This document shows positions 1-19,627 of a stretch of DNA of 20,000 nt, one piece after another. The translations under genes were made by a program, and so were the position numbers. Origin of the DNA: an uncultured virus (IMG/VR IMGVR_UViG_3300009034_002461) (lineage: Duplodnaviria > Heunggongvirae > Uroviricota > Caudoviricetes); IMG/VR virus record IMGVR_UViG_3300009034_002461; one strand, written 5' to 3'. The first letter of the stretch is position 1, and each line of letters begins with the position of its first letter. The notes beneath the pieces were generated by a model. That model saw nothing but the letters and a program-made list of their open reading frames with translations, had not been told where the DNA came from and did not search any database.

Positions 1-186
1 CAATTCAAGCACCCTAACAGTAGAATATTCTTTTACTTCTTCAATTATTAGTGAACTTTTTGTAAGCTTTTCAATTAACCTAACACTCTTTCTCAATCTC
101 TCAATCTTTTTAATATCTGCATTTATTTTTTCAATTATTTTAATACATTCTGCAAGTTCTTCAACTATTTTATTTATATTTAACAT
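1..186 (-). CDS. Class I SAM-dependent methyltransferase, N-terminal part (runs off window)
   Basis: Not in ORF track. ATG at 186 overlaps the stop of the 180-692 gene and follows AAGGAAGG. Translates MLNINKIVEEL...ERLRKSVRLIEKL...STVRVLEL, ending at a motif-I-like VLEL; resembles the N-termini of 6805-7434 and 7445-8071. Confidence 0.6.
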   Translation of the reverse strand, partial: MLNINKIVEELAECIKIIEKINADIKKIERLRKSVRLIEKLTKSSLIIEEVKEYSTVRVLEL

Positions 187-692
187 AAGTTACCTTCCTT
201 AAAAATTTTCTTTCTTAATTTTTCAAGTTTATTATATTCTTTACCTAAATCATGACTAATTAACCAGTCTTTATCCCAGCATCTTTTTTTTCTTTTACAA
301 ACATCATAGAACTTTTCTGGAATATAAACTGGAATTGTTTTTATATTAAACCATAAACAACAAGCAGTCCTATGATTTCCTCCGCACATTTTATAATTAT
401 TATTCATAATAATATATGGTTTATATTCTTCTACAAATCCATTTTTCTCAAATGATTTTATAATTTTAATAAACTTGTCACTCCTTTCATCGACTTTTCT
501 ATATTTATAAAATTTAGAATATAATTTATATCTGAATTTTTTTGGACAATTATTAGCATAAAAGTTTTTGACAAATAAATATCTAACCATTAAATCATAT
601 CGATAAAATTTACCATCCTTAAATTGCTTGGATAAAAAATAACCCAAATCGATATATTTCTTTTCCATTTTATCGAAATCACGATGTATCAT
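180..692 (-). CDS. ParB/sulfiredoxin-fold protein, paralog 5 of 5
   Basis: Motifs KFYRYDL, IIKSFEKNGF, CGGNHR, WFNIKTIPV; same pattern as four neighbours. True start may be the ATG at 668. Confidence 0.7.
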   Translation of the reverse strand: MIHRDFDKMEKKYIDLGYFLSKQFKDGKFYRYDLMVRYLFVKNFYANNCPKKFRYKLYSKFYKYRKVDERSDKFIKIIKSFEKNGFVEEYKPYIIMNNNYKMCGGNHRTACCLWFNIKTIPVYIPEKFYDVCKRKKRCWDKDWLISHDLGKEYNKLEKLRKKIFKEGNLC

Positions 693-1167
693 TTACCCCA
701 ACCCTTTTTAATATAATCTTTTTAGTTTTTTTCAATTGTGAAAAATATTTTTCAAAACCATTTTTTCTCATCCATGCCGATGAGTGTCTTCTTTTTCTAT
801 CTCGACAACGCTCATTAAATACAACTGGCACTTCTTTTATTCCAAACCAAATAGACAGAACAATCCTGTGGCTTCCCGAACATATATAATGTCTTTTATT
901 CATCGTAATAGGAAATTCTTTGTCATATCCTTTTTCCTCAAACGAAGAAATCAATGAAAAAAACTTACTATATTCTTTTTTTATATGTTTTTTAGAAACT
1001 TCTTTTGCTTTGTATATTAAATCGTATGGTTTATATCTGAATGATTTTGGTTTGCCTTTTTTGTAAAAATTTTTTATAAATAGATATATGACAACTAAAT
1101 CATATCTCAAAAATTTTCCGCCTTTAAATTGGCTATTAATAATATTTTTAACTAATATATTTCTCAT
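679..1167 (-). CDS. ParB/sulfiredoxin-fold protein, paralog 4 of 5
   Basis: KFLRYDL, LISSFEEKGYDKEFP, CSGSHR, WFGIKEVPV. Confidence 0.7.
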   Translation of the reverse strand: MRNILVKNIINSQFKGGKFLRYDLVVIYLFIKNFYKKGKPKSFRYKPYDLIYKAKEVSKKHIKKEYSKFFSLISSFEEKGYDKEFPITMNKRHYICSGSHRIVLSIWFGIKEVPVVFNERCRDRKRRHSSAWMRKNGFEKYFSQLKKTKKIILKRVGVNDTS

Positions 1168-1631
1168 TCCACGATGCCTATTGTCTTAAATAATTTATTT
1201 TTTGCTCTATTTATAACTTGCATGTTATTTTGAAAGCCATTATCTTCCAACCACTTTTTATTAAATCGTCTTCTTTTTCTTTTACACGATTCATTTTTAA
1301 TAAATGGAATTTCATTTATATCCAAGTACAAACATATGGCTATTCTGTGTGTGCCTCCACAAATATGATAATCTTTACTAAATTCCAATGGATATTTTTT
1401 ATCATATCCTTTTTTCTCAAATGAATCAATTAATTTGATAAATCTTTTACTCCTATCTTTTATCCCTCTTGCGGCAGATAATTTTGAATACAATTTGTAT
1501 TTAAAATCATCTGGTTTATTTTGTTTGTAAAATTCTTTAACAAATAAATATCTTATAATAATATCATATTTGCAAAATTTACCCTTTTCATATTGATTTT
1601 TCAAAATGGTTTTTAAATCTATATAATTCAT
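1164..1631 (-). CDS. ParB/sulfiredoxin-fold protein, paralog 3 of 5
   Basis: KFCKYDI, LIDSFEKKGYDKKYP, CGGTHR; ATGA overlaps with both neighbours. Confidence 0.7.
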   Translation of the reverse strand: MNYIDLKTILKNQYEKGKFCKYDIIIRYLFVKEFYKQNKPDDFKYKLYSKLSAARGIKDRSKRFIKLIDSFEKKGYDKKYPLEFSKDYHICGGTHRIAICLYLDINEIPFIKNESCKRKRRRFNKKWLEDNGFQNNMQVINRAKNKLFKTIGIVE

Positions 1632-2110
1632 ATTATATTCAATTTTTTAAATATCTTTTTCTTTGTTTCTTTTATATCTGGCATATATTTTTTAAAACCA
1701 TATTCGATCATTTTTTCTCTAGTATATTTTCTTTTTTTCTTTCTATAATGTTCTCTATATATGACAGGAAATTCTTTTATATTAAACCAAAGACATAACG
1801 CTATTCTGTGTTTGCCACCACCAGTTATATAATCACGAGTCATATACAAAGGATATTTTTTATCGTATCCTTTTTTCTCAAATGATTTAATTAAAGCAAT
1901 AAATTTCCTGGGTTGAGCGTCTCGTTCTCTTGTTTTTATTATCAATTCATATGGAGTAAAATATAAATCTTTTGGCTTTTTCATTTCGTAATACTTTTCT
2001 ATAAAAAGATATTTCACGATTAAATCATAACGAGAGAATTTATCATTATCTTTTTGATTAGCAATATAATCTTTAGTAAAACAAAATTCGACGACTTCGT
2101 TTACTGTCAT
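1628..2110 (-). CDS. ParB/sulfiredoxin-fold protein, paralog 2 of 5
   Basis: KFSRYDL, LIKSFEKKGYDKKYP, GGGKHR, WFNIKEFPV. Confidence 0.7.
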   Translation of the reverse strand: MTVNEVVEFCFTKDYIANQKDNDKFSRYDLIVKYLFIEKYYEMKKPKDLYFTPYELIIKTRERDAQPRKFIALIKSFEKKGYDKKYPLYMTRDYITGGGKHRIALCLWFNIKEFPVIYREHYRKKKRKYTREKMIEYGFKKYMPDIKETKKKIFKKLNII

Positions 2111-2111
2111 T

Positions 2112-2582
2112 TTATATACCCAATTCCTTAAAAATTTTTCTTTTATACTCTTTTATTGTCTTCATATCCTTTTTAAAGCCATTGTTTTTCATCCAATGAC
2201 CGCTGAACCGATCTTCCTTGCGTTTACATTTTGGATGTAATTCTATGGGTATTCTGGGGATTTTAAACCAGATGCAACAAGCGAATCTATGGCTTCCTCC
2301 GCATAAATAATATTCTTTTTTACCAACGCTGATTGGATATTCTTTATCATATCCTTTTTCTTCAAATGAATAAATCAAAGGAATAAAATCCTCCGTCTTT
2401 ATTCTTTTAGTTTTTGCTATTCCTTTATATAATTTATTATATATTTCCCAATTAAAATCATCTGGTTTATTCTGTTTATAAAATCTTTCTATAAACATAC
2501 ATTTTACAATTACGTCATAACGCCAAAATTTTCTATTATTAAACTGTTTTAGCATTAAATTTTTTGTTTTTATCCATTCCAT
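2112..2582 (-). CDS. ParB/sulfiredoxin-fold protein, paralog 1 of 5
   Basis: KFWRYDV, LIYSFEEKGYDKEYP, CGGSHR, WFKIPRIPI. Confidence 0.7.
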   Translation of the reverse strand: MEWIKTKNLMLKQFNNRKFWRYDVIVKCMFIERFYKQNKPDDFNWEIYNKLYKGIAKTKRIKTEDFIPLIYSFEEKGYDKEYPISVGKKEYYLCGGSHRFACCIWFKIPRIPIELHPKCKRKEDRFSGHWMKNNGFKKDMKTIKEYKRKIFKELGI

Positions 2583-2583
2583 T

Positions 2584-3261
2584 TTATTCGATTTTTAAAT
2601 CCTTTTTTATCCAAAGTTGTTCCATATGTTTTTGTTCATTTATATTATCATTACCAAATTTAAATACAAAATTCTCGGAAATTTTATTCATAATTTCTTT
2701 CTTTTTCTGAATGAATTGCCTTGAGTTAAATTTTTTACATTTTCCATGCAACTCTATATATAATACATCAGAAATTTCTAAAAATCTTTTTGTTTTTGAT
2801 TTGAAAATATCAAATTCACAACCTTCGCAATTAATAATTAAATAATGAATTCTTTTAATGTTTTTATTTTCACAAAAGTCATCTAATGTCAAACACGGAA
2901 TTTCTTTTTTCTCGATTTTTGCCCAGGTTTTATTTTTCAAATACTTTTTATGCAAACTATTACTTTGAGATGAGCCTTTCATTTTGTCGTGATTTGCGAC
3001 ATAAAGATTTACAATTCCATTGTACGACGATATGGCTATATTAATTGGAATAATTCCCTTAAATTGTTCAGTATTTTTCTTTAATACTTTAAAATTCTTT
3101 GGACACGCCTCTATACAATATGCAGTATAATTATTTAAACCATCGCAAACTTTTTTAACAACATTTCCCGTATATGCTCCTACATCGACAATCATTGGTT
3201 TATTAATCTTTAATAAATATAGATTAGCAAATTCCATCATTTTATTTTGAATAACACCCAT
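2584..3261 (-). CDS. FkbM-family methyltransferase
   Basis: VDVGAYTG motif I, IEACPKN, TLDDF, INCEGCE (variant of KIDVEGxE), IELH. Confidence 0.85.
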   Translation of the reverse strand: MGVIQNKMMEFANLYLLKINKPMIVDVGAYTGNVVKKVCDGLNNYTAYCIEACPKNFKVLKKNTEQFKGIIPINIAISSYNGIVNLYVANHDKMKGSSQSNSLHKKYLKNKTWAKIEKKEIPCLTLDDFCENKNIKRIHYLIINCEGCEFDIFKSKTKRFLEISDVLYIELHGKCKKFNSRQFIQKKKEIMNKISENFVFKFGNDNINEQKHMEQLWIKKDLKIE

Positions 3262-4166
3262 TATTTTTTCTCCAATACTATATATCTTACAATTTTCTTT
3301 GTTGTTCTATCTCGCCTGGGAATATATTCCTCATGTGATTTAGAACAAAAATAAATAGCATCGTTTGCTGGAATAGTTTCATATATTCCGCGATACCACC
3401 CGCTGCTTTTATATACTTTTATTGGCTTGTATCCCTTTTTCGCAAATAATTTTGGTCTGGCTATTGCCGCTGATATAACATATCTAAAATAAAAACCTAA
3501 TTCGACCATATTTATTAATGCTTTTTTCATATTAAGTTTTTTATTATATAAATGAGGATGCACTTCCATGAAGATTTTAGTGCCAGATTTAGATTTTTCT
3601 GCTGTTTTATGCATTCCATTTAAAATATTTACTTCATGCCCCTCTACATCAAATTCATAAATATCCGGCAATTCTTTATCTTGCAAAAAATTGTCTACAG
3701 TTTGCGTATTAACCATTTTTATATTGCCGGATGAAGCACGATTCTTTGATAAAGAACCCAAATTAGAATGGCCAGAAACAAAAAATTTTGTTTTTTTATC
3801 CATATCTACTTTATCAGATATTGCAATTTTTTTAGTAATTACATTCTTATAATTATTTAATTCTATATTCTTTTTTAGAACTTTATAGTTTTTTGTTTTT
3901 GGCTCAACGGCATAAATTAGACCATTTTTTCCAACTAATTTAGCCAGAATAAGAGTTAAATATCCTATATTCGCTCCTATATCAAAACAAACATGTCCTC
4001 TTTTGACATGTTTTCTTATTAACGACATAAATTCTAATTCTCTTAATTTATATCCATTTGTTTTTCTCAATGTTTTACTTATTCCAGGATCGTCCTTAAT
4101 AAGATACATTTTGTTTTCACCAAAATCTTTCAATATTAAATACATTTTTTTATTATTTTCATACAA
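3261..4166 (-). CDS. FkbM-family methyltransferase
   Basis: FDIGANIG, AVEP, TVDNF, FDVEGHE, MEVHP. True start may be the ATG at 4145, overlapping the upstream stop. Confidence 0.88.
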   Translation of the reverse strand: MYENNKKMYLILKDFGENKMYLIKDDPGISKTLRKTNGYKLRELEFMSLIRKHVKRGHVCFDIGANIGYLTLILAKLVGKNGLIYAVEPKTKNYKVLKKNIELNNYKNVITKKIAISDKVDMDKKTKFFVSGHSNLGSLSKNRASSGNIKMVNTQTVDNFLQDKELPDIYEFDVEGHEVNILNGMHKTAEKSKSGTKIFMEVHPHLYNKKLNMKKALINMVELGFYFRYVISAAIARPKLFAKKGYKPIKVYKSSGWYRGIYETIPANDAIYFCSKSHEEYIPRRDRTTKKIVRYIVLEKK

Positions 4167-5173
4167 TTTTTAATAGCATTAAGTTTTCGTAATTCTTTAT
4201 ATTTCTCTCTAATTTTCAATGCTTTTTTACTTTCTAATACAATGTCATCGTAATTTAGTATTAGATTAGATAATTTGTTTAATTTTGTGTGTTGTGGCCA
4301 GTCAAACCATTTTTTTGTTCTTTCTCTGTGATCTCTATGTTTTTCATAAGAATATTTTGCCATGCCACAGATATTTATCCATTTTTTTTCTGATCCTAAA
4401 AGCCAAATAGTAGTAGAGCTTCCTATATTCAAAATAAATTCATGAGATGCTATATTTTTCATTAAATTTTGATCAGATATATGAATTAGAAAATTATATT
4501 TTGAGACATTCATTATATTCAATGTTTTTTCAATTCCCCTTTTATGACAACATAAATAAGGGACAGGATGTGTTTTTATGGTAATTTTTTTTATACAATC
4601 TGGAATATTATTGAATATACTTTCCATAAAATACATATTATTTCTTCTTGTCTTTTTTTCATCTAAAAATTCTCTAACAGGAGAGACATATCCACGACCA
4701 CCACCGGGATGAATCAATAATAATGAGCCTTTTTCTTCATCAATTTCACTTTGATACTTATCAAATAAATTGCACATAGGATTTCCAACTTTATATTTAT
4801 CTTTTCCATGTCTGCAATAAAAATCATTATAAGGCAATGCAACAAAATCCTTATTATATATTTTTTTATCGAGTGTCAGATAAAAGCCATCAATTTTATT
4901 TTTTAAAGTAGTAAAGTTGACTTTATCGAAGTATTTATATGGAATATTAAAATTATCTATTAAATGTTTTACAGACCCTTTACTTGCTTTTGATGCGTTC
5001 ATAGGTCTATCTAAAAATCTCTTTATATCAAATTTATTTTTATCTTCTTGGACCTCGATCCATAATTCATATCCATTTTTAATAATTGGATCAATAAAAT
5101 GAGCTATTGCTCTGTACCTCTGCATCATTGTTCTTTTAAATACCAATCTTTTAGACATTGTTCCAATTATCAA
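4136..5173 (-). CDS. Putative GT-B transferase with HP motif (resembles bacterial sialyl/Kdo-transferase, capsule-synthesis or glycerophosphotransferase C-terminal domains)
   Basis: ITIKTHP followed by IASHEFILNIGSST matches the 'KxHP ... SS' pattern of CMP/CDP-donor GT-B enzymes; operon context. Confidence 0.45.
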   Translation of the reverse strand: MIIGTMSKRLVFKRTMMQRYRAIAHFIDPIIKNGYELWIEVQEDKNKFDIKRFLDRPMNASKASKGSVKHLIDNFNIPYKYFDKVNFTTLKNKIDGFYLTLDKKIYNKDFVALPYNDFYCRHGKDKYKVGNPMCNLFDKYQSEIDEEKGSLLLIHPGGGRGYVSPVREFLDEKKTRRNNMYFMESIFNNIPDCIKKITIKTHPVPYLCCHKRGIEKTLNIMNVSKYNFLIHISDQNLMKNIASHEFILNIGSSTTIWLLGSEKKWINICGMAKYSYEKHRDHRERTKKWFDWPQHTKLNKLSNLILNYDDIVLESKKALKIREKYKELRKLNAIKNCMKIIKKCI

Positions 5174-5840
5174 ATTCCCAATCTAATTCATGCGAACTAT
5201 AAAATTGAGTATTTGGAAAATCTATCACTAAATACTCAAGATGTTTTATCATGGCTTTAGATTTATACCAATCTTCATTTTGATATTCTTTATTTGCTTT
5301 GGTTAAATAATCATTTTTATAAAAATCTATACCAAATAAATATAATTTTTCGGGACTATTTTCCATCAAACATAAATCAATAGCTAAAAGACTTGTCGTT
5401 GGCCACGCTCTTCTGTTTTTGTGTCTGATTTCTAATTTTCCGTTCCTAATCTTCCTCTTTAATTTTTTTATAATATCTTTATAACAATCACATTCTTCCA
5501 TATAATGTTGAATATTTTCCATTCCGACAGAAGGATATCCTCTAGTTTTCATTTTTTGTGGAAGAAATTTTACATCAACTGGGTAAGCATTTTTAAAATC
5601 TTTTGATTCAAATGAATTGCATATTACTTCTCGGATACGAAGTTTTTTATATAACTTTTCAGATAATTGATTCGGACCCCTGCCAACAACATGAATGATA
5701 TTTTTGTTTAAGAAATAATCAATTCCTATTTCTTTTATTTCTTTATTAAAATTATTAATAATATAAATGGCATCAAAATGACATTGAATATCTTTGTAAT
5801 TAATCAAGCTTTTTCCGCGTCCAAGCACAGCACATATCAT
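5151..5840 (-). CDS. GT29/GT42-like (sialyltransferase/Maf-like fold) putative CMP-sugar transferase
   Basis: CAVLGRGKSL...INNF N-terminal motif and PTTSLLAIDLCL...KLYLFGIDFY C-terminal motif. Confidence 0.6.
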   Translation of the reverse strand: MICAVLGRGKSLINYKDIQCHFDAIYIINNFNKEIKEIGIDYFLNKNIIHVVGRGPNQLSEKLYKKLRIREVICNSFESKDFKNAYPVDVKFLPQKMKTRGYPSVGMENIQHYMEECDCYKDIIKKLKRKIRNGKLEIRHKNRRAWPTTSLLAIDLCLMENSPEKLYLFGIDFYKNDYLTKANKEYQNEDWYKSKAMIKHLEYLVIDFPNTQFYSSHELDWEFDNWNNV

Positions 5841-5842
5841 AA

Positions 5843-6802
5843 TTATCTCCCCAATATTTTTTCAAAGAAATCTTTATATTGCAAGGCGATATTATGTATA
5901 TCAATATGTTTATTACTTACTACTATATCTCCTTGAATTGCTCTATGAAAAGCAGCAACGATTATGTTTGTATCAAACTTAGGAGGATTATATAAATCAA
6001 CTGGTTCAAAGTCATATGGTTTATCTATCTTGCAGATTATCCCGCCAGCATGTTTGACAATTTCTTTCGTTCCTCCAACATTATTAGTAATAACTATCTT
6101 TTTAGCACATATTGCTTCAACGACAGAATTAGGACAACAATCAAACCAACATAGATGCACTACGGCATTTGACATTATTAAGTACCTTGCCAAAGAAGCG
6201 AATCTAAGTATTCCAAGATATCTAACTTTAGATGTAGAAAAATATCTTCTAATATGCTTTCTAGATAAACCAGATTGTTTTAAATCGCCAGCAATCCATA
6301 AACACGAATTTGGGATTTCGGCATGCAAAAATGACTTTATTGTTCTTTTTAAACGTTTATGAGGTCGCCATCTTGAAAAAGCCAAAAAATTATATTCGAA
6401 ATCAGATTCGGCTGGTTTTATGGAAGAAAAATATTCAGGATCTGCTCCATTTAATATTACTTTACTAGGTATATCAAATTTATGTATATATCTTCTTACC
6501 ATATTTTTACTAAATTCTGATTGATATATGACAGCATCAGCTTCTTTACTATGCTTTTTAATATCATAATTCAATTCTTTATATGATATTGCTGTATTAT
6601 GATAAACGCCATTAAACCTGACAACTTTTAGTTTGGCATTTGTTTTTTTCTTTATTTTAATAAGATGTAATGATATATCATGGGGTTTTTTGGGATTACT
6701 TGTTATGTCCACGCCAAGATTTTTCAAAGCATCTGATAATCTTAACATAAAAAGCCCCTTGCCTGTTTTTGCATGTTTATTAAGTGGTAAATATATTTTC
6801 AT
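5843..6802 (-). CDS. Glycosyltransferase, GT4-like (GT-B)
   Basis: IYQSEFS, ILNGAD, WRPHKR, DCCPNSVVEA, GGTKE. Confidence 0.88.
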   Translation of the reverse strand: MKIYLPLNKHAKTGKGLFMLRLSDALKNLGVDITSNPKKPHDISLHLIKIKKKTNAKLKVVRFNGVYHNTAISYKELNYDIKKHSKEADAVIYQSEFSKNMVRRYIHKFDIPSKVILNGADPEYFSSIKPAESDFEYNFLAFSRWRPHKRLKRTIKSFLHAEIPNSCLWIAGDLKQSGLSRKHIRRYFSTSKVRYLGILRFASLARYLIMSNAVVHLCWFDCCPNSVVEAICAKKIVITNNVGGTKEIVKHAGGIICKIDKPYDFEPVDLYNPPKFDTNIIVAAFHRAIQGDIVVSNKHIDIHNIALQYKDFFEKILGR

Positions 6803-6804
6803 AA

Positions 6805-7434
6805 TTAATTATAGAACATTAAGTTTGGCCATCTCGTATCCTTATTGCGAATCTTTATATCAGAGAAATAAGGAGAAAAGAGATTCTTTACCTGTTTTAT
6901 ATTATACAATCCCAATTCATTAGCTGGTTTACCTGGCTTAATATCTTCGGATATTTCTGGGTGGACTCCCACAATCAATAATTGTATATTTGGTAAAATA
7001 TCACGCATCATATTTATCTCTTCATTATTTAAATGATGTAAAACTTGAAATACCATTATGGCGTTTATATTATCGTTAAAAAATTGTTTATCTTTCACAT
7101 AATCAAAAAAACTCATATAATAAAAACTACAATTTTTAACATGAAAATATTTGCTAGCAAATTTTGCTTTTTTTATAACTTTTTTTTCTCTATCTATATC
7201 TATTCCAATAACATTTTTGAACTTTTTAGAAGCTACAATTGAATATACTCCATTATTACAGCCAACATCTAAAACATTCAATGATGAGCAAAGAGAATTA
7301 CTAATTGAATTTATGAATTTTATAGCACCCGTTAAACGTTTATTGAGTTTCTGGTGACCGCCCTTGCCATTAATTTCTATCCACTTCTCCTTTAATTTTG
7401 GATATAATTTTTTAAATTTCTTAACTGTAATCAT
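6805..7434 (-). CDS. Class I SAM-dependent methyltransferase (paralog of 7445-8071)
   Basis: VLDVGCNNG, VIGIDID, FQVLHHL. Confidence 0.85.
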   Translation of the reverse strand: MITVKKFKKLYPKLKEKWIEINGKGGHQKLNKRLTGAIKFINSISNSLCSSLNVLDVGCNNGVYSIVASKKFKNVIGIDIDREKKVIKKAKFASKYFHVKNCSFYYMSFFDYVKDKQFFNDNINAIMVFQVLHHLNNEEINMMRDILPNIQLLIVGVHPEISEDIKPGKPANELGLYNIKQVKNLFSPYFSDIKIRNKDTRWPNLMFYN

Positions 7435-7444
7435 TATTCGAACC

Positions 7445-8071
7445 TTATTTAGTTATAATTAATGTTGGCCATCTTGTAGATAAATTACGGACTTTTATTT
7501 TTGTAAAAAATGGAGAAAAATAATCAGTCGCCTGTTTAATTGTATATAATCCCAATTTATTTGCTGGCTTTCCTGGTTCAATTCTATCCCCGACTTCAGG
7601 ACGCACACTTATAATAAGAATTTTTATATCAGGCAATAATTGTTTCAACATAAATATTTCATCGTCATCTAAATGATATAAAACCTGAAAACCGAGAATG
7701 GCTTTGATTTTATCATGCTCAAATTTTCCACTATCAACATATTTAAAGAAACCCATTTTATGAAAAGAACAATTTTGCCTATGAAAAAAATTAGCAGCTA
7801 TTTTTGCTTTTTTAATAACACTTTTAGAATCACGATCAGTATCTATCCCAATAACTTTTTTAAATTTATAAGAAGCCGCGACAGATAATATGCCACAATT
7901 GCATCCGATGTCCAAAGCATTACAAGAATATTGGCTTAATTTATTAATTTGTTTTACTGCATTAAATAATCTTTCATTGGGTTTTTGATAATTACCCCTT
8001 TTGTTAACTTTTTTTTGCCAAGATGATTTCAGTTCTGGATATCTTTTCTCTATTTTGCGTTTAGCTAACAT
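7445..8071 (-). CDS. Class I SAM-dependent methyltransferase (paralog of 6805-7434)
   Basis: ALDIGCNCG, VIGIDTD, FQVLYHL; shares PGKPANxLGLYxIKQ and TRWP with neighbour. Confidence 0.85.
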   Translation of the reverse strand: MLAKRKIEKRYPELKSSWQKKVNKRGNYQKPNERLFNAVKQINKLSQYSCNALDIGCNCGILSVAASYKFKKVIGIDTDRDSKSVIKKAKIAANFFHRQNCSFHKMGFFKYVDSGKFEHDKIKAILGFQVLYHLDDDEIFMLKQLLPDIKILIISVRPEVGDRIEPGKPANKLGLYTIKQATDYFSPFFTKIKVRNLSTRWPTLIITK

Positions 8072-8081
8072 AGGAATCTCA

Positions 8082-8840
8082 TTAATCGTCTAAAAATTTA
8101 GTATTTTTCCTTGTAATCCCTTCTCTTCTTCTTAACTTATCTTGTTTATTTAATATTCTGGTGACTTTATCATTGTATTTTTTATTCTTTTTTCTCATAC
8201 TCATCATAGATTTTTTATGGCATCTATAATAAGCAGCGTCAATATTTATAAACTTTTTAGAAACTCTTTGCAATTCATTATCATTATGACCGAATAATCT
8301 CCACCACATTTCTTTATCTGCTCTAGATCTTAATTTTTCGTCATACAATCCGAATTTCCTATGAATGTTTTTTTTATACAATACTGTTTGAGCATGAATT
8401 CTCGCATGACCTCTCACTGCATTTTTGTGATTTATCTTATACGCTTGTTTTAAACTTGTATTATATTCTACGTTAATAGCTTTTGCATGAACGAAATCAA
8501 CCTTATAATCTAGCAACCCAAATACCCTTCTTGAAATAGATTTTTCGGTCATCATATCATCAGCATCTAATACAGTTATAATTTTGCCTTTAGAATGCGT
8601 TATCCCAATGTTTTTAGCAACTGAATAGCCAGAATTAACTGGTGTCTTTAACAGAGTTATATTATCTGCGCGATCTTGTAATGACTTAACTATCTTAACA
8701 GAATTATCAGTAGAACAATCATTGATTACAATTATTTCAAAATTTCCATAATCTTGTCTAAGTATAGATTTTAAACACCATTTTATATATTGTTCATAGT
8801 TATATAGCGGAACTATAACGCTTACTAATGGGCGCCCCAT
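8082..8840 (-). CDS. Glycosyltransferase family 2
   Basis: VSVIVPLYN, INDCSTD, NSGYSVAKN, LDADD. Confidence 0.92.
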   Translation of the reverse strand: MGRPLVSVIVPLYNYEQYIKWCLKSILRQDYGNFEIIVINDCSTDNSVKIVKSLQDRADNITLLKTPVNSGYSVAKNIGITHSKGKIITVLDADDMMTEKSISRRVFGLLDYKVDFVHAKAINVEYNTSLKQAYKINHKNAVRGHARIHAQTVLYKKNIHRKFGLYDEKLRSRADKEMWWRLFGHNDNELQRVSKKFINIDAAYYRCHKKSMMSMRKKNKKYNDKVTRILNKQDKLRRREGITRKNTKFLDD

Positions 8841-9601
8841 GTTTGTTTCCCTTTATAATAATTGAAAAATCTCAGCATTTCAGATGCATGATATTCAATA
8901 TTTTTTTTATCCTTATCTGACAGCTTTTTCATTGACATTTTATTAAAATCAGGAGATTTTTTTACGGTAAAATATTTGTTGTCTCCACATATATTTAATC
9001 GTGGTATTTCCCATTTTTTCTTTATCTTAATAGGATCGACACCTATAAAATCAAATACTTTATCCATTGTCGATTGCACATCACTGCATAAATCTTCATA
9101 TGTTATTAGTAAAAAATCTATTTTTTCTGAATCTCCCATCATAATTTTATTACACTCATTCCATTGTTTTGCGCATATTTTAATTTTATGTCCTCTTCTA
9201 CGGTGAATGCCCTCTGCAACCGCATACCCATTTCTAACGATTCCAATAAATTTAGATGGTGGAAAAGCAAGATCCATGAACTCAAGCCTTAACATGTGAT
9301 GAGGGGATTTTTCTACTAAAAACTTTTTAGACAAATCCCAATTCTTATAAAAATCTCTCTTTATTTTTTCTGCATGATGTTTAACTAAATCATCTTTACT
9401 CCAACGGTACACACTAGGATATAAAGCAAACAAACGTCTTTTTAAACCAAGTTTTGCATCATGTGGTAAATACTTACAATAATGTTGTCCCTCTTGCATC
9501 AGTACTGATAGTTCTTTATTTTTACTCATAAAAAATCTTAAAAGACCTGTGCCAGAATTTGTACATCCAGTTATAAATATATGAATATGTTCCAAGACCA
9601 T
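8825..9601 (-). CDS. Sulfotransferase-family protein
   Basis: IFITGCTNSGT (5'-PSB-like), VEKSPHH, IVRNG, ITYEDL, VFDFIG. Confidence 0.85.
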   Translation of the reverse strand: MVLEHIHIFITGCTNSGTGLLRFFMSKNKELSVLMQEGQHYCKYLPHDAKLGLKRRLFALYPSVYRWSKDDLVKHHAEKIKRDFYKNWDLSKKFLVEKSPHHMLRLEFMDLAFPPSKFIGIVRNGYAVAEGIHRRRGHKIKICAKQWNECNKIMMGDSEKIDFLLITYEDLCSDVQSTMDKVFDFIGVDPIKIKKKWEIPRLNICGDNKYFTVKKSPDFNKMSMKKLSDKDKKNIEYHASEMLRFFNYYKGKQTWGAH

Positions 9602-9604
9602 CTC

Positions 9605-10519
9605 CTATTGTTTAAGATATTTTATAAATTTTCTCATATTTCTTCCTCTACTACCTATCTTTTCATTTAATAATTCTACCATATTATTTTGAAGTTTCAG
9701 TCTTAATTCTTCATTCATCATTAACTTATTTAGATATTCAGATGCAATATTTAGATCCCTGGCCGGATACACCATCGCCGTCTTTCCATGTACGGCATAA
9801 TCATTCATTCCATTTCTGATATAATCGGTACATATCAATGCACACCCAGACAAAGAAGACTCAATGGGGGGATTATGCAGTCCTTCTAATTCGGTTGGTG
9901 CAAACCATACTTTTATTTTGTTATACCAATTATTAAGGACTTTTTCTTTAGGATTTTTTATGTCTCTATTCAACATCTCCAATTTATATCCAGTTTTTTG
10001 AGATATTTTCACGGCATCTTCATGTCTCTTTGTTTTATGCAATTTGCTATATAGTGCCCCGAATATATTTTCGCGTTCTACTTGTTTCACGCAAAATTTA
10101 TTATCATCTATTCCTGGATAAATCAATTCTGATTTTATATTATGACTTGATAGATATTTTTTCAACCATTCGCTATTAACTATACACTTCAAAGATCTAT
10201 AACACGATAATAATTTCTTTTCACTTGCATTCCACAATTCATGAGCCCTTATATAATAGAACTTTTTCTTTATCTTTGATCTTAGCACATCTTCAACGCT
10301 ATAGTAGCCAGTTGCAATAACAACATGCCCATTTGGACATTTATTGCCCACAATAAATTGTATATTCTTCAAATTATGCCATGTATATTTATTTAGGACA
10401 TTGCTATAGAATATAATCTCATGACCTAATTTACACAAAACTCTTCCACACTTAACAAGAGTTCTACTACCTCCATTGTTTCCCAAGCCTGTATTGTAAA
10501 GATTGAATACTATTTTCAT
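9605..10519 (-). CDS. Glycosyltransferase, GT4-like (GT-B)
   Basis: NGGSR, VIATG, VNSEWL, PGID, EGLHNPPIE (Ex7E). Confidence 0.85.
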   Translation of the reverse strand: MKIVFNLYNTGLGNNGGSRTLVKCGRVLCKLGHEIIFYSNVLNKYTWHNLKNIQFIVGNKCPNGHVVIATGYYSVEDVLRSKIKKKFYYIRAHELWNASEKKLLSCYRSLKCIVNSEWLKKYLSSHNIKSELIYPGIDDNKFCVKQVERENIFGALYSKLHKTKRHEDAVKISQKTGYKLEMLNRDIKNPKEKVLNNWYNKIKVWFAPTELEGLHNPPIESSLSGCALICTDYIRNGMNDYAVHGKTAMVYPARDLNIASEYLNKLMMNEELRLKLQNNMVELLNEKIGSRGRNMRKFIKYLKQ

Positions 10520-11502
10520 AAGATATTTTTAATTAATTTATATAAATGATCGACAGCTTTTTCCATGCATATATTATCATCATAATATTTCTTTATATTA
10601 CCATCACAATTAAGCATCTTCTCAACTCCATTCATAATATTTTTTCCGTTGACAAGAATACCAGTTTCTTCAGTGATATATTTTTCATGCCAAAAATTCA
10701 TATTATTAGTAGCAACAACTGGGATGCCACAAGCTAGATATTCTGGTATGACTCTTGGACATGAATCATAGTTAGTTGAGCAACAAACTCCCACTTTACA
10801 TGAACTAATTTTTTCAGGCAAATATTTCCGCAAAAACCATCCTGCCCAATTTATATCTACATTTAATTTCTTTGCTTTATTTACATATTCCTTACTATTA
10901 TTCCCCAAGTTTAAAATGCTATATTTCGTGTTTGAAAATGTTTTCAATAATAATTTATGTCTTTTTATGGTTCCTTGTGAAGCATTTGCTATAAAACAAA
11001 TATCATATTTCTTTTTTGTATTATATGGTCTGAATAATGTAGCCGCTGGTTTTATGAATAATTTAACTCGTTTTCCTTTTCTCTTTATCTCTTTCTTCTG
11101 TTTTTTAGAGTCTACTAAAAATAAATCATATGTGTCAAAATTGCTTTGTGGATAATATCGTGTTCCTGCACCGTAATAAACCTTTTTCGCTTTTGGATAT
11201 TGTTTCAAAAAATTATCATAATAAGAAAAACCCCCACGACACACGATAAGATCTGGATAAAAAGACGGCTTGTAAGTTTCTAATTTTGATAACCATTTTT
11301 CCCTAAATCTACTATTAACAACAAATTTTCTTTTTTCAAAATCACTTTGATATAGTAATTCTGCTTTTGCTTTAAACTTTTTAGACAAATAGTAAAAAAG
11401 TTGAGTCCAAACATCGCTACAATTTTCTATACAATTATATAACACTTTTTTGGGATGTTCGTGTCGCGGGGGTATAGAGCCCCTCAAAAATATAATATTC
11501 AT
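10516..11502 (-). CDS. Glycosyltransferase, GT4-like (GT-B)
   Basis: KKYDICFIA, KRH, DSCPRVIPEYLACGIPVV, ETG. Confidence 0.85.
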   Translation of the reverse strand: MNIIFLRGSIPPRHEHPKKVLYNCIENCSDVWTQLFYYLSKKFKAKAELLYQSDFEKRKFVVNSRFREKWLSKLETYKPSFYPDLIVCRGGFSYYDNFLKQYPKAKKVYYGAGTRYYPQSNFDTYDLFLVDSKKQKKEIKRKGKRVKLFIKPAATLFRPYNTKKKYDICFIANASQGTIKRHKLLLKTFSNTKYSILNLGNNSKEYVNKAKKLNVDINWAGWFLRKYLPEKISSCKVGVCCSTNYDSCPRVIPEYLACGIPVVATNNMNFWHEKYITEETGILVNGKNIMNGVEKMLNCDGNIKKYYDDNICMEKAVDHLYKLIKNIL

Positions 11503-12137
11503 AATATAATATTCCTCAAAGAAAAAAGATATTTCGCTTTATTCTTTTTTCTTTCCAAATAAATGGTAGAATTTGTATAAAAATAATTATAAATTTTTAT
11601 ACAATATTTTTTATCACCAGTTCTTAATTTATGTGGTGTCCTATTTAAGTATAGATTCATACTTATATCTAATTTATTGTTCAAAAAATCACATAATCCA
11701 GATAACAAAGATCGGGATGACGATGTAATATCAAAATATACCGACTTATGATCTCCCAAATACCAACACCCATCCCCGTCAAAATAGCCTCTTATAAAAT
11801 CCTTTTTTAAATCATTATCGATAAAATATATAACTTCATCCCATGATATTGTATAAGTTTTTTTATTGTAAATACCATCAAATTTTAGATTTTCTATTAA
11901 TTTTTTAGACGATATTCGAAACTGTACATATTTTATATTTTTATAAGAATGTTCTTCTAACTTATTTTTAGATTGACAAAATTTTTTAAATTTTTCTAGA
12001 TGACGCTCATCTTTATACGATAATTTTATGGATAAAGTATTCCTATCCTTGCAAATATATCCATCTGATGCTATAAACCCTAACCAATATGCACGATGCT
12101 CAGTATCAACATTTCTAAAACAATCACTTATCTTCAT
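11499..12137 (-). mobile_element. Free-standing double-motif LAGLIDADG homing endonuclease gene
   Basis: AYWLGFIASDGYI and FIRGYFDGDGC motifs, C-terminal YLERK; ATGA overlaps at both ends. Confidence 0.88.
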
Positions 12138-16628: not shown

Positions 16629-17204
16629 TTATGAGACGGTAGCATTCACTTTATCTGCTTCTTTCTCCTTCCACGCTTTTTGAACGATACATTCGCCATC
16701 CATATGATCCAATTCATGAAAAATAACCCTGGCCCTGAAACCTTTAAATTCTTCAATATGATCCATCCAATTTTCATCAAAATATTTTATTTTAATAGAA
16801 TAAGGTCTTTCGACATTACAAAAAATATTAGGATATGACAAACATCCTTCATTCGCCACAAGTTTTATAGGATCTTCATATAAAATCTCAGGATTGATGA
16901 AGATTTTGACAAAATCAACTCCGACCTTAAATCTAGCAGCAAATATTCTTTGGGCTATCCCAATCTGAGAACCCGACAAACCAACACCATTTTTTGTAGC
17001 AACCAAAATTCGTTTTAAATCATATGATATCTGTTTTATGTGATTTCCTTTTACGCATGTCTCGCATACCTTCTTTAATATTGGATCATCAAATTTAATA
17101 ATTCTATCAACTAATGTTATACGATGTTTTTCTTTAGCTAACTTGTCTTTAAGGGCTTTTTTCTTTCTAGCTCTGGCTTTAGCCTTTCCTTGTAATTTAC
17201 CCAT
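16629..17204 (-). CDS. def: Peptide deformylase with basic N-terminal extension
   Basis: Three PDF motifs GVGLSGSQIG, EGCLS, HELDH; SD GGGAG. Confidence 0.96.
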   Translation of the reverse strand: MGKLQGKAKARARKKKALKDKLAKEKHRITLVDRIIKFDDPILKKVCETCVKGNHIKQISYDLKRILVATKNGVGLSGSQIGIAQRIFAARFKVGVDFVKIFINPEILYEDPIKLVANEGCLSYPNIFCNVERPYSIKIKYFDENWMDHIEEFKGFRARVIFHELDHMDGECIVQKAWKEKEADKVNATVS

Positions 17205-18845: not shown

Positions 18846-19097
18846 CTATGCTTTTGACCTCCACTCTGTTCTACAATTGATACATATTCTTAATATACTA
18901 CGATTATCCAAAATTAATCTACGACCTGCATAAGAAATTTCTCCACACTTAGGACAAATAGACGTTGTTCTAACATAAATTCTATTTTTTAATTTTTCTG
19001 ATATATCTTTTATCAACATGCTTCTCGAAATTTCATCAGACGATAACCTACTTATTATTGATTTTATTATCGATTTATAATCTTTTTTTTCTTTCAT
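18846..19097 (-). CDS. Small Zn-ribbon protein
   Basis: CPKCG...CINC; ATGA overlap with upstream gene. Confidence 0.65.
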   Translation of the reverse strand: MKEKKDYKSIIKSIISRLSSDEISRSMLIKDISEKLKNRIYVRTTSICPKCGEISYAGRRLILDNRSILRICINCRTEWRSKA

Positions 19098-19627
19098 TTA
19101 TTCATATATTTCAATATATATTCGGAAAATTCCCAAACAGCACCATGTCCACCATTATGTAGAGAAATGAAATCAGCCACTTCTCGCACTTCTTGAATAG
19201 CATCTTCTGGGCAGCCAGAGAATCCTGCCAATTTCATGCATTTTAAATCATTTTCTGAATCACCCATATACGCTATGTTGTCCCATGATAACCTCAGAGC
19301 ATATAGACTATTAAATAATTTTTCTGTTTGACTTAAATCGCCAATTATTGCATTTATCTCATATTGTTTTGTTACTGCATTCGCAATTAATTTGACAGGA
19401 AAATCCAAACTCTTTATTTTTCTTTTTATACATTTACCATCTGAACCTGTTATAATTATTATTGGTATTTTATTGCGATGCAACTGTTCCAATCCATGAA
19501 AATCCCTTGTATAGAAAGATTTTATAACTCTGCCCTTATCTGAAACTTGATATATGCCATCAGTTAAAACTCCATCAACATCGAATGCGACAACTTTTAT
19601 TTTGCTATCTTTTTTGTCTTCCATCAT
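19094..19627 (-). CDS. kdsC: KdsC/YrbI-family HAD phosphatase (Kdo-8-P or Kdn-9-P phosphatase-like)
   Basis: FDVDGVLTDG, KSFYTRD..G, IITG, K, AYMGDSEND, GGHGAVWE; AAGGAG SD. Confidence 0.85.
   Translation of the reverse strand: MMEDKKDSKIKVVAFDVDGVLTDGIYQVSDKGRVIKSFYTRDFHGLEQLHRNKIPIIIITGSDGKCIKRKIKSLDFPVKLIANAVTKQYEINAIIGDLSQTEKLFNSLYALRLSWDNIAYMGDSENDLKCMKLAGFSGCPEDAIQEVREVADFISLHNGGHGAVWEFSEYILKYMNK

Follow-up and report, generated by a model that had tools for sequence, protein, structure and literature searches.

Five tandem phage proteins of probable ParB/sulfiredoxin fold as candidate phosphotransferases in nonulosonic-acid glycan pathways

Introduction

The ParB/sulfiredoxin (Srx) fold is familiar mainly through its part in chromosome segregation and through three enzymes that act on small molecules. 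Srx transfers phosphate to a sulfinic acid, and its G-G-C-H-R loop holds the catalytic Cys directly before the His-Arg pair. Here we describe five consecutive genes in a 20,000-nucleotide stretch of DNA (hereafter the window) from an uncultured virus of the Caudoviricetes, IMG/VR record IMGVR_UViG_3300009034_002461. Their products, named p1 to p5 in the order of transcription, are anciently duplicated, individually conserved members of an unnamed family that most probably has this fold. Our preferred reading, to which we give roughly even odds, is that they act as diverged nucleoside triphosphate (NTP)-dependent phosphotransferases tailoring nonulosonic-acid glycans.

ParB, KorB, Noc and PadC bind cytidine triphosphate (CTP), as indicated by the titles of their structure entries and by passages of a published survey of the fold (PMC12704722). 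The survey began from the family PF02195. The same passages list fusions to helix-turn-helix (HTH), HNH, DNA and RNA methyltransferase, CBS, DUF3850 and other domains, describe ParB-fold domains as common on phages and many ParB-fold proteins as NTP-dependent switches and not enzymes, and state that nucleotide specificity is not reliably predicted by sequence analysis or AlphaFold3 (PMC12704722). The words sialic, polysaccharide, nucleotidyltransferase and "nucleoside diphosphate kinase" do not occur in its main text (PMC12704722). A literature search found no paper tying a ParB-like or Srx-like protein to nonulosonic-acid genes.

The Five-Gene Array and Its Phage Orthologs

In the open reading frame (ORF) listing of the window, the array occupies positions 180-2582 as five consecutive minus-strand ORFs of 155-170 residues (Table 1). 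A gap of 1 nt separates p1 from p2, and the genes that follow overlap by 4 nt (p2/p3), 4 nt (p3/p4) and 14 nt (p4/p5). In an alignment of the five proteins, identity to the first sequence is 36-43% and 22 columns are invariant. They have in common the motifs (R/K)YD and SFE(K/E)(K/N)G(Y/F), followed by a loop ending in His-Arg that differs from copy to copy. The paralogy is far beyond chance, since family-profile E-values are of the order of 1e-59 to 8e-70 and each paralog has a position-wise ortholog with 54-67% identity on another viral contig. The original prediction of five coupled tandem paralogs thus agrees in every detail of coordinates and motifs. It had also described the proteins as devoid of the HTH and dimerisation domains of ParB, and they give no above-threshold Pfam match of any kind; the methyltransferase and glycan surroundings it pointed out are likewise seen in a Pfam scan of the neighbours.

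The nearest relative found is a 188,075-base IMG/VR contig that holds two loci, L001 and L002. CheckV rates it 38% complete, a value that would mean a very large phage genome. Positions 180-11538 of the window are collinear, gene for gene, with L001 (51-67% protein identity). Five-gene arrays lie directly downstream of FkbM-like genes in the window, L001 and L052-L056, and two-gene arrays occur in L002, L059, L062 and L064. The five-gene order is kept with position-wise orthology in four contigs (window, L001, L052, L054). In a maximum-likelihood tree, from which the ortholog groups were drawn, support for the position-wise clades is 100/99 (p1), 98/96 (p2), 97/96 (p3), 92/92 (p4) and 100/100 (p5). 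Since the tree groups the window genes by array position with those of L001, L052 and L054, the duplications predate the divergence of these phages, each copy having been kept since. The short-array genes fall into two further clades, one for each gene of the pair. Protein P0011 belongs to the first of these and is recorded on a 73,147-base contig, as are the window's own proteins, so that the phage of the window probably carries a sixth copy beyond the window itself.

The 188-kb contig carries seven strong family members and a weak one (Table 1). In L002, L059 and L062, the short array closes a conserved block that comprises a PIG-L deacetylase, one or more formyltransferases, a methyltransferase, NeuB with a SAF domain, a Capsule_synth-like protein of ~580 residues, an HpcH aldolase, CTP_transf_3, a 2-hydroxyacid dehydrogenase and a sulfotransferase, and then the two-gene array. 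Well over 30 kb of the 188-kb contig consists of glycan genes, including those for a UDP-glucose dehydrogenase, a B12-radical SAM enzyme and a complete nonulosonic-acid block.

Fold of the Array Proteins

Protein p3 was chosen for modelling. Its AlphaFold2 model, built on a 28-sequence alignment, reaches a predicted local distance difference test (pLDDT) value of 93.1 and a predicted template-modelling score (pTM) of 0.89, and displays a helical insert and a C-terminal helical extension. Foldseek returns no match for it at E<=1e-3; the rows shown are nearly all ParB/Srx proteins, with PadC (E 7e-2), the N-terminal domain of pNOB8 ParB, Noc, Srx, SerK, KorB, SbnI and Spo0J. In a second search, independent of Foldseek and covering 48,161 chains, the top nine rows all belong to the ParB/Srx superfamily (Z 5.5 to 3.3). 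Arabidopsis thaliana Srx (6ky4) is the best match, with Z 5.5 over 82 residues, a root-mean-square deviation (rmsd) of 3.7 and 16% identity. It is followed by KorB (Z 4.9), PadC (4.6), pNOB8 ParB (4.4), Atu1540 (4.2), SerK (5x0b, 4.1), human Srx (4.0), SbnI (5ujd, 3.5) and Osa (3.3).

Because these structure-search scores are modest, a profile test was added. With hhalign, a 42-sequence family alignment matches four chromosomal ParB N-domains over 54 columns (probability 51.5, E 1.5e-4), while the reversed control yields a probability of 0.05 and an E-value of 0.85; the five window genes alone reach a probability of 25% (E 7.6e-4). In this alignment, SFExxGY..P falls on ParB Box I and (D/G)GxHR on the GERR Box II, and no counterpart of Box III is aligned. 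Each window paralog also has at least one weak ParB-like PHROG match (E 0.01-0.08).

Searches by sequence in collections of named families give little else. Pfam matches neither the five paralogs nor 28 family members, and NCBIfam has no model for the family domain, the matches of P0096 to a PseD model and, weakly, of P0055 to NeuD falling outside it. A protein atlas yields "hypothetical protein" clusters only, with ParB_N clusters at TM 0.42-0.47. A cluster look-up of ten relatives gives no functional name for the domain, the PADLOC defence families return two weak MTase_II matches only, and tblastn of p3 and P0035 against 50,697 phage records finds no match. Taken together, model searches and profile alignment argue well for a ParB/Srx fold, and we assign it with good confidence to the window family as a remote branch outside PF02195. 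The comparison of a model with Srx, SerK, SbnI and ParB N-domains, which had been put forward as a check of the predicted fold, brings ParB/Srx members to the top of both fold searches.

The Wider Family and Its NDK-Fold Partner

A word-indexed search retrieved only 35 related proteins; family size was taken from an exhaustive profile search, which yields 1410 representatives at E<=1e-3 and 686 at E<=1e-10. The hallmarks of the family are a full-length profile match, (R/K)YD, SFE..G and G-x-H-R, and all five window ORFs display them. Only the His and Arg of the loop are invariant across 42 of 42 diverse members. Bacterial members usually have DGSHR, the loop of 101 of the 184 domain-bearing proteins; DGAHR (20), GGSHR (19), GGNHR (10), NGSHR (9), NGAHR (6) and GGKHR (5) follow, and 14 have rarer loops or no recognisable loop. 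The expected novelty of the family is borne out, as it is present in none of the curated libraries searched (Pfam, NCBIfam, PDB sequences).

Clustering of the sequences that flank the ParB/Srx-like domain revealed two further domains. Among the 108 proteins of at least 230 residues, domain Y (~145 residues) lies directly C-terminal of the ParB/Srx-like domain in 92, and domain X (~200 residues) is present in 33. The three-domain protein P0058 was modelled (pLDDT 87.8). In this model, Y has the fold of nucleoside diphosphate kinase (NDK), with a Foldseek E-value of 7e-3 at probability 1.00 and, in a second alignment, Z 12.5 and an rmsd of 2.5 Å over 119 residues (model residues 358-502). X resembles TM1012, a putative nucleotidyltransferase (E 8e-3). 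NDK is a phosphotransferase that works through a phospho-His, and Y has an invariant His, Arg, Lys and Asp. Searching PDB sequences with the Y profile gives nothing relevant and no sequence-level link to NDK. A Y domain is found within 5 kb in 36 of 49 bacterial genome loci, and in Bacilli and Clostridia loci where the family gene stands alone, Y is a separate gene of the same operon. Accordingly, the description of the family as stand-alone holds for the phage clade only, most long bacterial members being fused to the NDK-fold domain or lying beside it.

The bacterial three-domain protein (TM1012-like nucleotidyltransferase, ParB/Srx-like and NDK-fold domains) has no Pfam or NCBIfam model. 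It directly adjoins NeuB and CTP_transf_3(-HAD) (examples in Table 1), and its nucleotidyltransferase stands either before or after the other two domains. Loci with this architecture are found in the series L003-L051 and L065-L100; the genes at L029 7959-9407 (Marinomonas sp. MED121) and L051 7632-9212 (Microbulbifer taiwanensis) are further examples.

A Pfam scan of 105 long members reports a Pfam family in 14. These fusions comprise six methyltransferases, two Capsule_synth/Epimerase_2-like domains, two Maf domains, one CTP_transf_3 (P0098), one NeuB (P0146) and two weak DUF6036/DUF2204 nucleotidyltransferases. Maf fusions are represented by P0046, P0096 and L028, and a HAD fusion by L042.

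Genomic Context in Bacteria

Nonulosonic acids, such as sialic, pseudaminic and legionaminic acids and Kdn, decorate flagella, capsules and O-antigens, and shape recognition by hosts, phages and the immune system. The bacterial relatives lie inside polysaccharide and nonulosonic-acid operons with Wzx-, Wzy-, Wzm- and Wzt-type genes. The 49 genome loci come from Bacteroidota, Bacillota, Verrucomicrobiota, Spirochaetota, Cyanobacteria, Chloroflexota and Proteobacteria. Twenty of them were scanned with Pfam over three genes on each side of the family gene: NeuB is present in 11, CTP_transf_3 in 15, and at least one of the two in 16. Of the four loci with neither, L007 has a Wzm/Wzt transporter, L020 a HAD-HMGL fusion, L029 Capsule_synth-like and DAHP-synthase-family/KdsA-like genes, and L051 glycosyltransferases. 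With local hidden Markov models built from the annotated NeuB and CTP_transf_3 genes of the scanned loci, a gene resembling one or the other is found at a distance of at most 5 kb in 41 of the 49 loci, and in 32 of the 35 that have at least 3 kb on both sides. Single-copy metagenome loci show the same linkage in 26 of 40 cases, and in 9/9 of the roomy ones. CTP_transf_3 is the most constant neighbour (38/49).

Two gene orders recur. The first is NeuB - CTP_transf_3(-HAD) - [X-ParB/Srx-Y]; the second, seen in Bacilli and Clostridia, is HAD - ParB/Srx - NeuB - CTP_transf_3 - separate Y. In two loci (L007, L023), the family gene adjoins Wzt-type ABC transporter genes. A HAD-HMGL-like aldolase, fused or adjacent, replaces NeuB in four loci from Clostridia, Bacilli and Bacteroidales (Table 1), which may represent a different route to a keto-acid sugar activated by cytidine monophosphate (CMP). 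The family thus belongs regularly to operons that make nonulosonic or related ulosonic acids in CMP-activated form, and a role in the corresponding glycan pathways is highly probable. The original prediction had expected homologs in glycan loci; they are found there, and more precisely beside the NeuB, CTP_transf_3 and HAD genes of nonulosonic and ulosonic acids.

Residue Conservation

In an alignment of 121 bacterial-type domains (numbering of p3), conservation of at least 80% is seen for R21, D23, R27, Y48, Q52, R55, S70, D92, S94, H95, R96 and W127. The phage paralogs keep D23 (the Asp of (R/K)YD), R or K at position 27 (save for window p4), Y48, H95 and R96, with His for Y48 in two p7 copies. 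Weight had been given to the residue before His-Arg as the Srx catalytic position. This residue is Ser in 83% of the bacterial-type domains and in all p1 and p4 copies, Thr in p3 and Asn in 6/6 p5 members. It is Lys (window, L001, P0009/10/12/13) or Thr (L052, L054) within the p2 orthologs, and Ser, Gly or Ala in the short-array clades. It is paralog-specific but, since it varies even between orthologs, not a shared catalytic residue. The emphasis on a Cys three residues earlier fares no better: it is present in four of the five window paralogs, and p4 orthologs have either CGGSHR (L001, L058) or HGGSHR (L052, L054, L060), which is not the behaviour of a shared catalytic residue. The phage clade is set apart more sharply by two lost bacterial residues, the Asp of the loop (DGSHR to GGxHR) and the Gln, than by the "Srx position".

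Proposed Function and Alternatives

Phosphotransfer, and with it the kinase or activating role of the original prediction, is suggested by analogy with SerK, SbnI and Srx, which share the fold and phosphorylate their substrates. The (D/G)GxHR loop, equivalent to ParB Box II and to the Srx GGCHR loop, would bind a nucleoside phosphate, and the domain would pass a phosphoryl group on to a molecule of the pathway, be it a sugar, a sugar acid or an acyl substituent. Several features of the context could accommodate such a reaction. The order HAD - family gene - NeuB - cytidylyltransferase would fit a kinase feeding a 9-phosphate synthase, the product of which is then dephosphorylated; the methyltransferase fusions and neighbouring Wzt genes would fit phosphorylation of a glycan terminus; and, with an aldolase and a dehydrogenase encoded next to the short arrays of the phages, an acyl substituent could also be what is activated. 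The phage clade would have dropped the NDK-fold partner, changed DGSHR to GGxHR and multiplied the gene, with five copies after two FkbM methyltransferases and a two-gene array after the phage's own NeuB/cytidylyltransferase cluster. For these phage copies, the chances of phosphotransfer are about balanced. Retention of five paralogs in the company of methyltransferases, a sulfotransferase and some ten glycosyltransferases suggests separate acceptors: most likely, every copy would act on an acceptor or position of its own in a glycan that the phage encodes and that is heavily decorated with methyl and sulfate groups.

Several observations weigh against this proposal. The fold scores are modest (best Z 5.5, Foldseek E 0.07), and the tool itself cautions that Z values below 8 can reflect a common arrangement. 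PF02195 matches none of the five window paralogs and none of 28 family members, even at E<=1, and PDB sequence searches with the five-gene and family profiles return only spurious rows, kallikrein and Sec62. D92, the Asp of DGSHR, and Q52 are 98-100% conserved in bacterial-type domains (98% for Q52); the former is Gly, Asn or Ser in the phage clade, the latter is never kept in the phage paralogs, and p4 of the window has Ile where Arg27 stands. Because this near-invariant Asp and Gln are lost, the phage proteins may act differently or may not be catalytic. Furthermore, the NDK-fold partner was not found in the window, L001, L002 or the rest of the 188-kb viral contig, which is a fragment. The five-gene array adjoins methyltransferases and glycosyltransferases, not NeuB, and five tightly coupled paralogs fit a hetero-oligomer as well as they fit five separate enzymes.

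A wider and more tentative proposal is that a widespread route to CMP-activated sialic-acid-like sugars includes a core step, unrecognised so far, that the ParB/Srx-like and NDK-fold pair carries out. In one form, the ParB/Srx-like domain would be the missing kinase of a phosphorylated route (sugar kinase, 9-phosphate synthase, HAD phosphatase, CMP synthetase), an order mirrored by the Bacilli and Clostridia genes HAD - family gene - NeuB - cytidylyltransferase - NDK-like. In the other, an Srx-like activation of acids would make an acyl- or sugar-acid phosphate for N-acyl decorations. In large phages, only the core of the domain would then have been retained, and it would have been amplified into five to eight specialised paralogs for a hyper-decorated glycan of their own.

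The loss of the near-invariant Asp and Gln in the phage clade also suits the strongest alternative, namely that the proteins are non-catalytic nucleotide- or CMP-sugar-binding subunits: switches resembling the ParB CTPases, adaptors or scaffolds. A hetero-oligomer of this kind, which is the main alternative to separate acceptors for the phage paralogs, might organise the methyltransferases and glycosyltransferases of the cluster or present an activated sugar. Translational coupling and an order fixed in four contigs suit equimolar subunits, fusions to enzymes handling CMP-nonulosonic acids or CTP (Maf, CTP_transf_3, NeuB, methyltransferases) fit a ligand-binding module, and many proteins of the fold are described as NTP-dependent switches in passages of the survey (PMC12704722). 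A complex prediction for p1 and p2 with ortholog alignments gave no answer (score 0.00) and counts neither for nor against a hetero-oligomer. However, the family is consistently paired with an NDK-fold domain in which the His is retained, and this points to phosphoryl chemistry and not to sensing; three enzymes, Srx, SerK and SbnI, are among the nearest structural matches; and Asp23, Tyr48, His95 and Arg96 persist in all paralog groups, save for the p7 copies mentioned above. On balance, a purely binding role is possible, though rather doubtful.

CMP is a by-product of nonulosonic-acid transfer. The ParB/Srx domain could convert it to CDP and the NDK-fold domain could convert CDP to CTP, so that cytidine nucleotides would be recycled for the neighbouring CMP-sugar synthetase. 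Such recycling would account for the constancy of CTP_transf_3, which is present even where the HMGL-like aldolase replaces NeuB (L015, L016, L023), and for the fold of the partner domain; CTP binding by ParB, KorB, Noc and PadC is consistent with it (entry titles; PMC12704722), as is the reliance of sialyllactose production engineering on improved CTP regeneration, stated in a passage on that subject (PMC13457516). Five to eight diverged paralogs in a phage that is devoid of the NDK-fold partner are left unexplained, however, as are the methyltransferase fusions, and cells already possess Cmk and Ndk. We therefore hold recycling to be unlikely.

That the genes encode DNA-directed ParB-like proteins (nuclease, partition, anti-defence or DNA-base hypermodification) and lie in a glycan cluster by chance would accord with weak profile matches to ParB-like partition proteins, nucleases and the ParB-like N-termini of DNA methyltransferases, and with the frequency of ParB-fold domains on phages reported in passages of the survey (PMC12704722), yet it is highly improbable in view of window proteins with no HTH or other DNA-binding domain, defence families unmatched beyond the two weak MTase_II matches, bacterial relatives settled in polysaccharide operons and a NeuB/CTP_transf_3 linkage in 41 of 49 loci.

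Genes Surrounding the Array

The window is AT-rich (24-33% G+C), and its coding lies almost wholly on the minus strand. The array belongs to a glycan cluster of more than 20 kb, in which about ten glycosyltransferases (GT), of GT1, GT2 and GT9 types, lie upstream of it (Table 1). A Pfam scan of 24 neighbouring window proteins finds no ParA-like gene. The two proteins encoded between the GT1 gene and the FkbM genes give no Pfam or NCBIfam match and no meaningful match among PDB sequences; the guess that the shorter one is sialyltransferase-like is unsupported. The tandem class-I methyltransferases are paralogous and have a single counterpart in L001, so that the duplication is specific to the window's phage. 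The LAGLIDADG endonuclease is absent from the collinear L001 stretch; on the related contig, a longer protein of the LAGLIDADG type in L002 matches it best (29% identity). The best phage relatives of the peptide deformylase are those of cyanophages P-RSM6 and S-SRM01 (34-36% identity). For the gene that follows the array, neither L001 nor L002 offers a counterpart at E 1e-8.

Table 1. Positions of the array genes, their neighbours and selected features of related loci.
Feature	Location	Coordinates	Strand	Remarks
p1	window	2112-2582	(-)	156 aa; CGGSHR; first gene of array; family profile E 8e-70; 63% identical to L001 9004-9534
p2	window	1628-2110	(-)	160 aa; GGGKHR; family profile E 1e-61
p3	window	1164-1631	(-)	155 aa; CGGTHR; family profile E 2.5e-64
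p4	window	679-1167	(-)	162 aa; CSGSHR; family profile E 3e-59
p5	window	180-692	(-)	170 aa; CGGNHR; last gene of array; family profile E 1e-60
Gene after array	window	1-186	(-)	begins 7 nt ahead of the p5 stop and continues past the window edge; first 62 residues resemble a charged coiled coil
FkbM-family methyltransferase	window	2584-3261	(-)	PF05050 E 1e-16; ends 1 nt ahead of p1
Second FkbM-family methyltransferase	window	3261-4166	(-)	PF05050 E 4e-16; kept in L001, L054, L055
Conserved protein without family	window	4136-5173	(-)	345 aa; 51% identity to same-place L001 counterpart
Conserved protein without family	window	5151-5840	(-)	229 aa; 56% identity to same-place L001 counterpart
Class-I methyltransferase	window	6805-7434	(-)	209 aa
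Class-I methyltransferase	window	7445-8071	(-)	208 aa
Sulfotransferase	window	8825-9601	same as array	upstream of array
Free-standing LAGLIDADG endonuclease	window	11499-12137	(-)	PF14528 E 5.6e-14; between GT1 and GT9-like genes
Peptide deformylase	window	16629-17204	(-)	PF01327 E 1.4e-35
KdsC-like HAD hydrolase	window	19094-19627	same as array	
Single counterpart of class-I methyltransferase pair	L001	3234-3860		
Weak eighth family member	L001	18292-18783		bacterial-type DGSHR; profile E 6.7e-5; between GT1 gene and hexapeptide acetyltransferase
Type IA topoisomerase	L002	15654-17665		apparently split in two overlapping ORFs: Toprim and core 475 aa, C-terminal zinc-ribbon part 204 aa; HNH endonuclease genes on both sides
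Three-domain protein	L005	7959-9356		
Three-domain protein	L018	7899-9398		
HAD-HMGL-like aldolase locus	L015	6164-9684		also cytidylyltransferase and NUDIX hydrolase
HAD-HMGL-like aldolase locus	L016	6113-9654		also cytidylyltransferase and NUDIX hydrolase
HAD-HMGL-like aldolase locus	L020	6130-9011		also NUDIX hydrolase
HAD-HMGL-like aldolase locus	L023	7806-12327		also cytidylyltransferase

Significance

The family is a widespread branch of a known fold that has so far had no name. Its metabolic setting is new, its expansion in phages is unusual, and it extends the fold into carbohydrate metabolism. An unannotated ParB/Srx-like and NDK-like pair inside most operons of one type (41/49) implies a missing pathway step or a nucleotide-handling function. 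The published survey of the fold was bound to miss this branch, which escapes detection by PF02195. On the phage side, five to eight conserved paralogs in a glycan cluster of more than 20 kb point to an elaborate virus-encoded glycan.

Comparison with Known Systems

The window proteins have the same single-domain fold as Srx, and the phage-clade loop G-G-x-H-R has the form of the Srx loop. They differ from Srx in having no Cys at the catalytic position (S, K, T, S and N in the window, and also G or A in orthologs), in being ~50 residues longer, and in a context of glycan genes and not of peroxiredoxin repair. SerK and SbnI share the fold and are small-molecule kinases that act inside biosynthetic pathways, the mode proposed here for the window family. 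They are longer (~240-254 residues), with a further C-terminal domain, whereas the window proteins have a single domain; their pathway is serine phosphorylation, according to entry titles, whereas the window neighbours are glycan genes. PDB sequence searches yield no sequence-level match of the family to either of them.

With the N-domains of ParB, Noc, KorB and PadC, the family has an alignable Box I and GERR Box II in common, and KorB, PadC, pNOB8 ParB and Spo0J match structurally. In contrast to the canonical ParB of ParABS systems, however, it has no HTH, dimerisation domain or ParA context, and the five window genes are not DNA-partition proteins.

The kinase of WbdD has a protein-kinase-like fold. 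WbdD-type O-antigen capping enzymes are a functional analogy only, as they have no homology to the family and there is no sign here of a methyl-phosphate product. In these enzymes, a kinase joined to a methyltransferase modifies the glycan terminus; in parallel, six family members are fused to methyltransferases, and the phage array follows two methyltransferases of the FkbM family.

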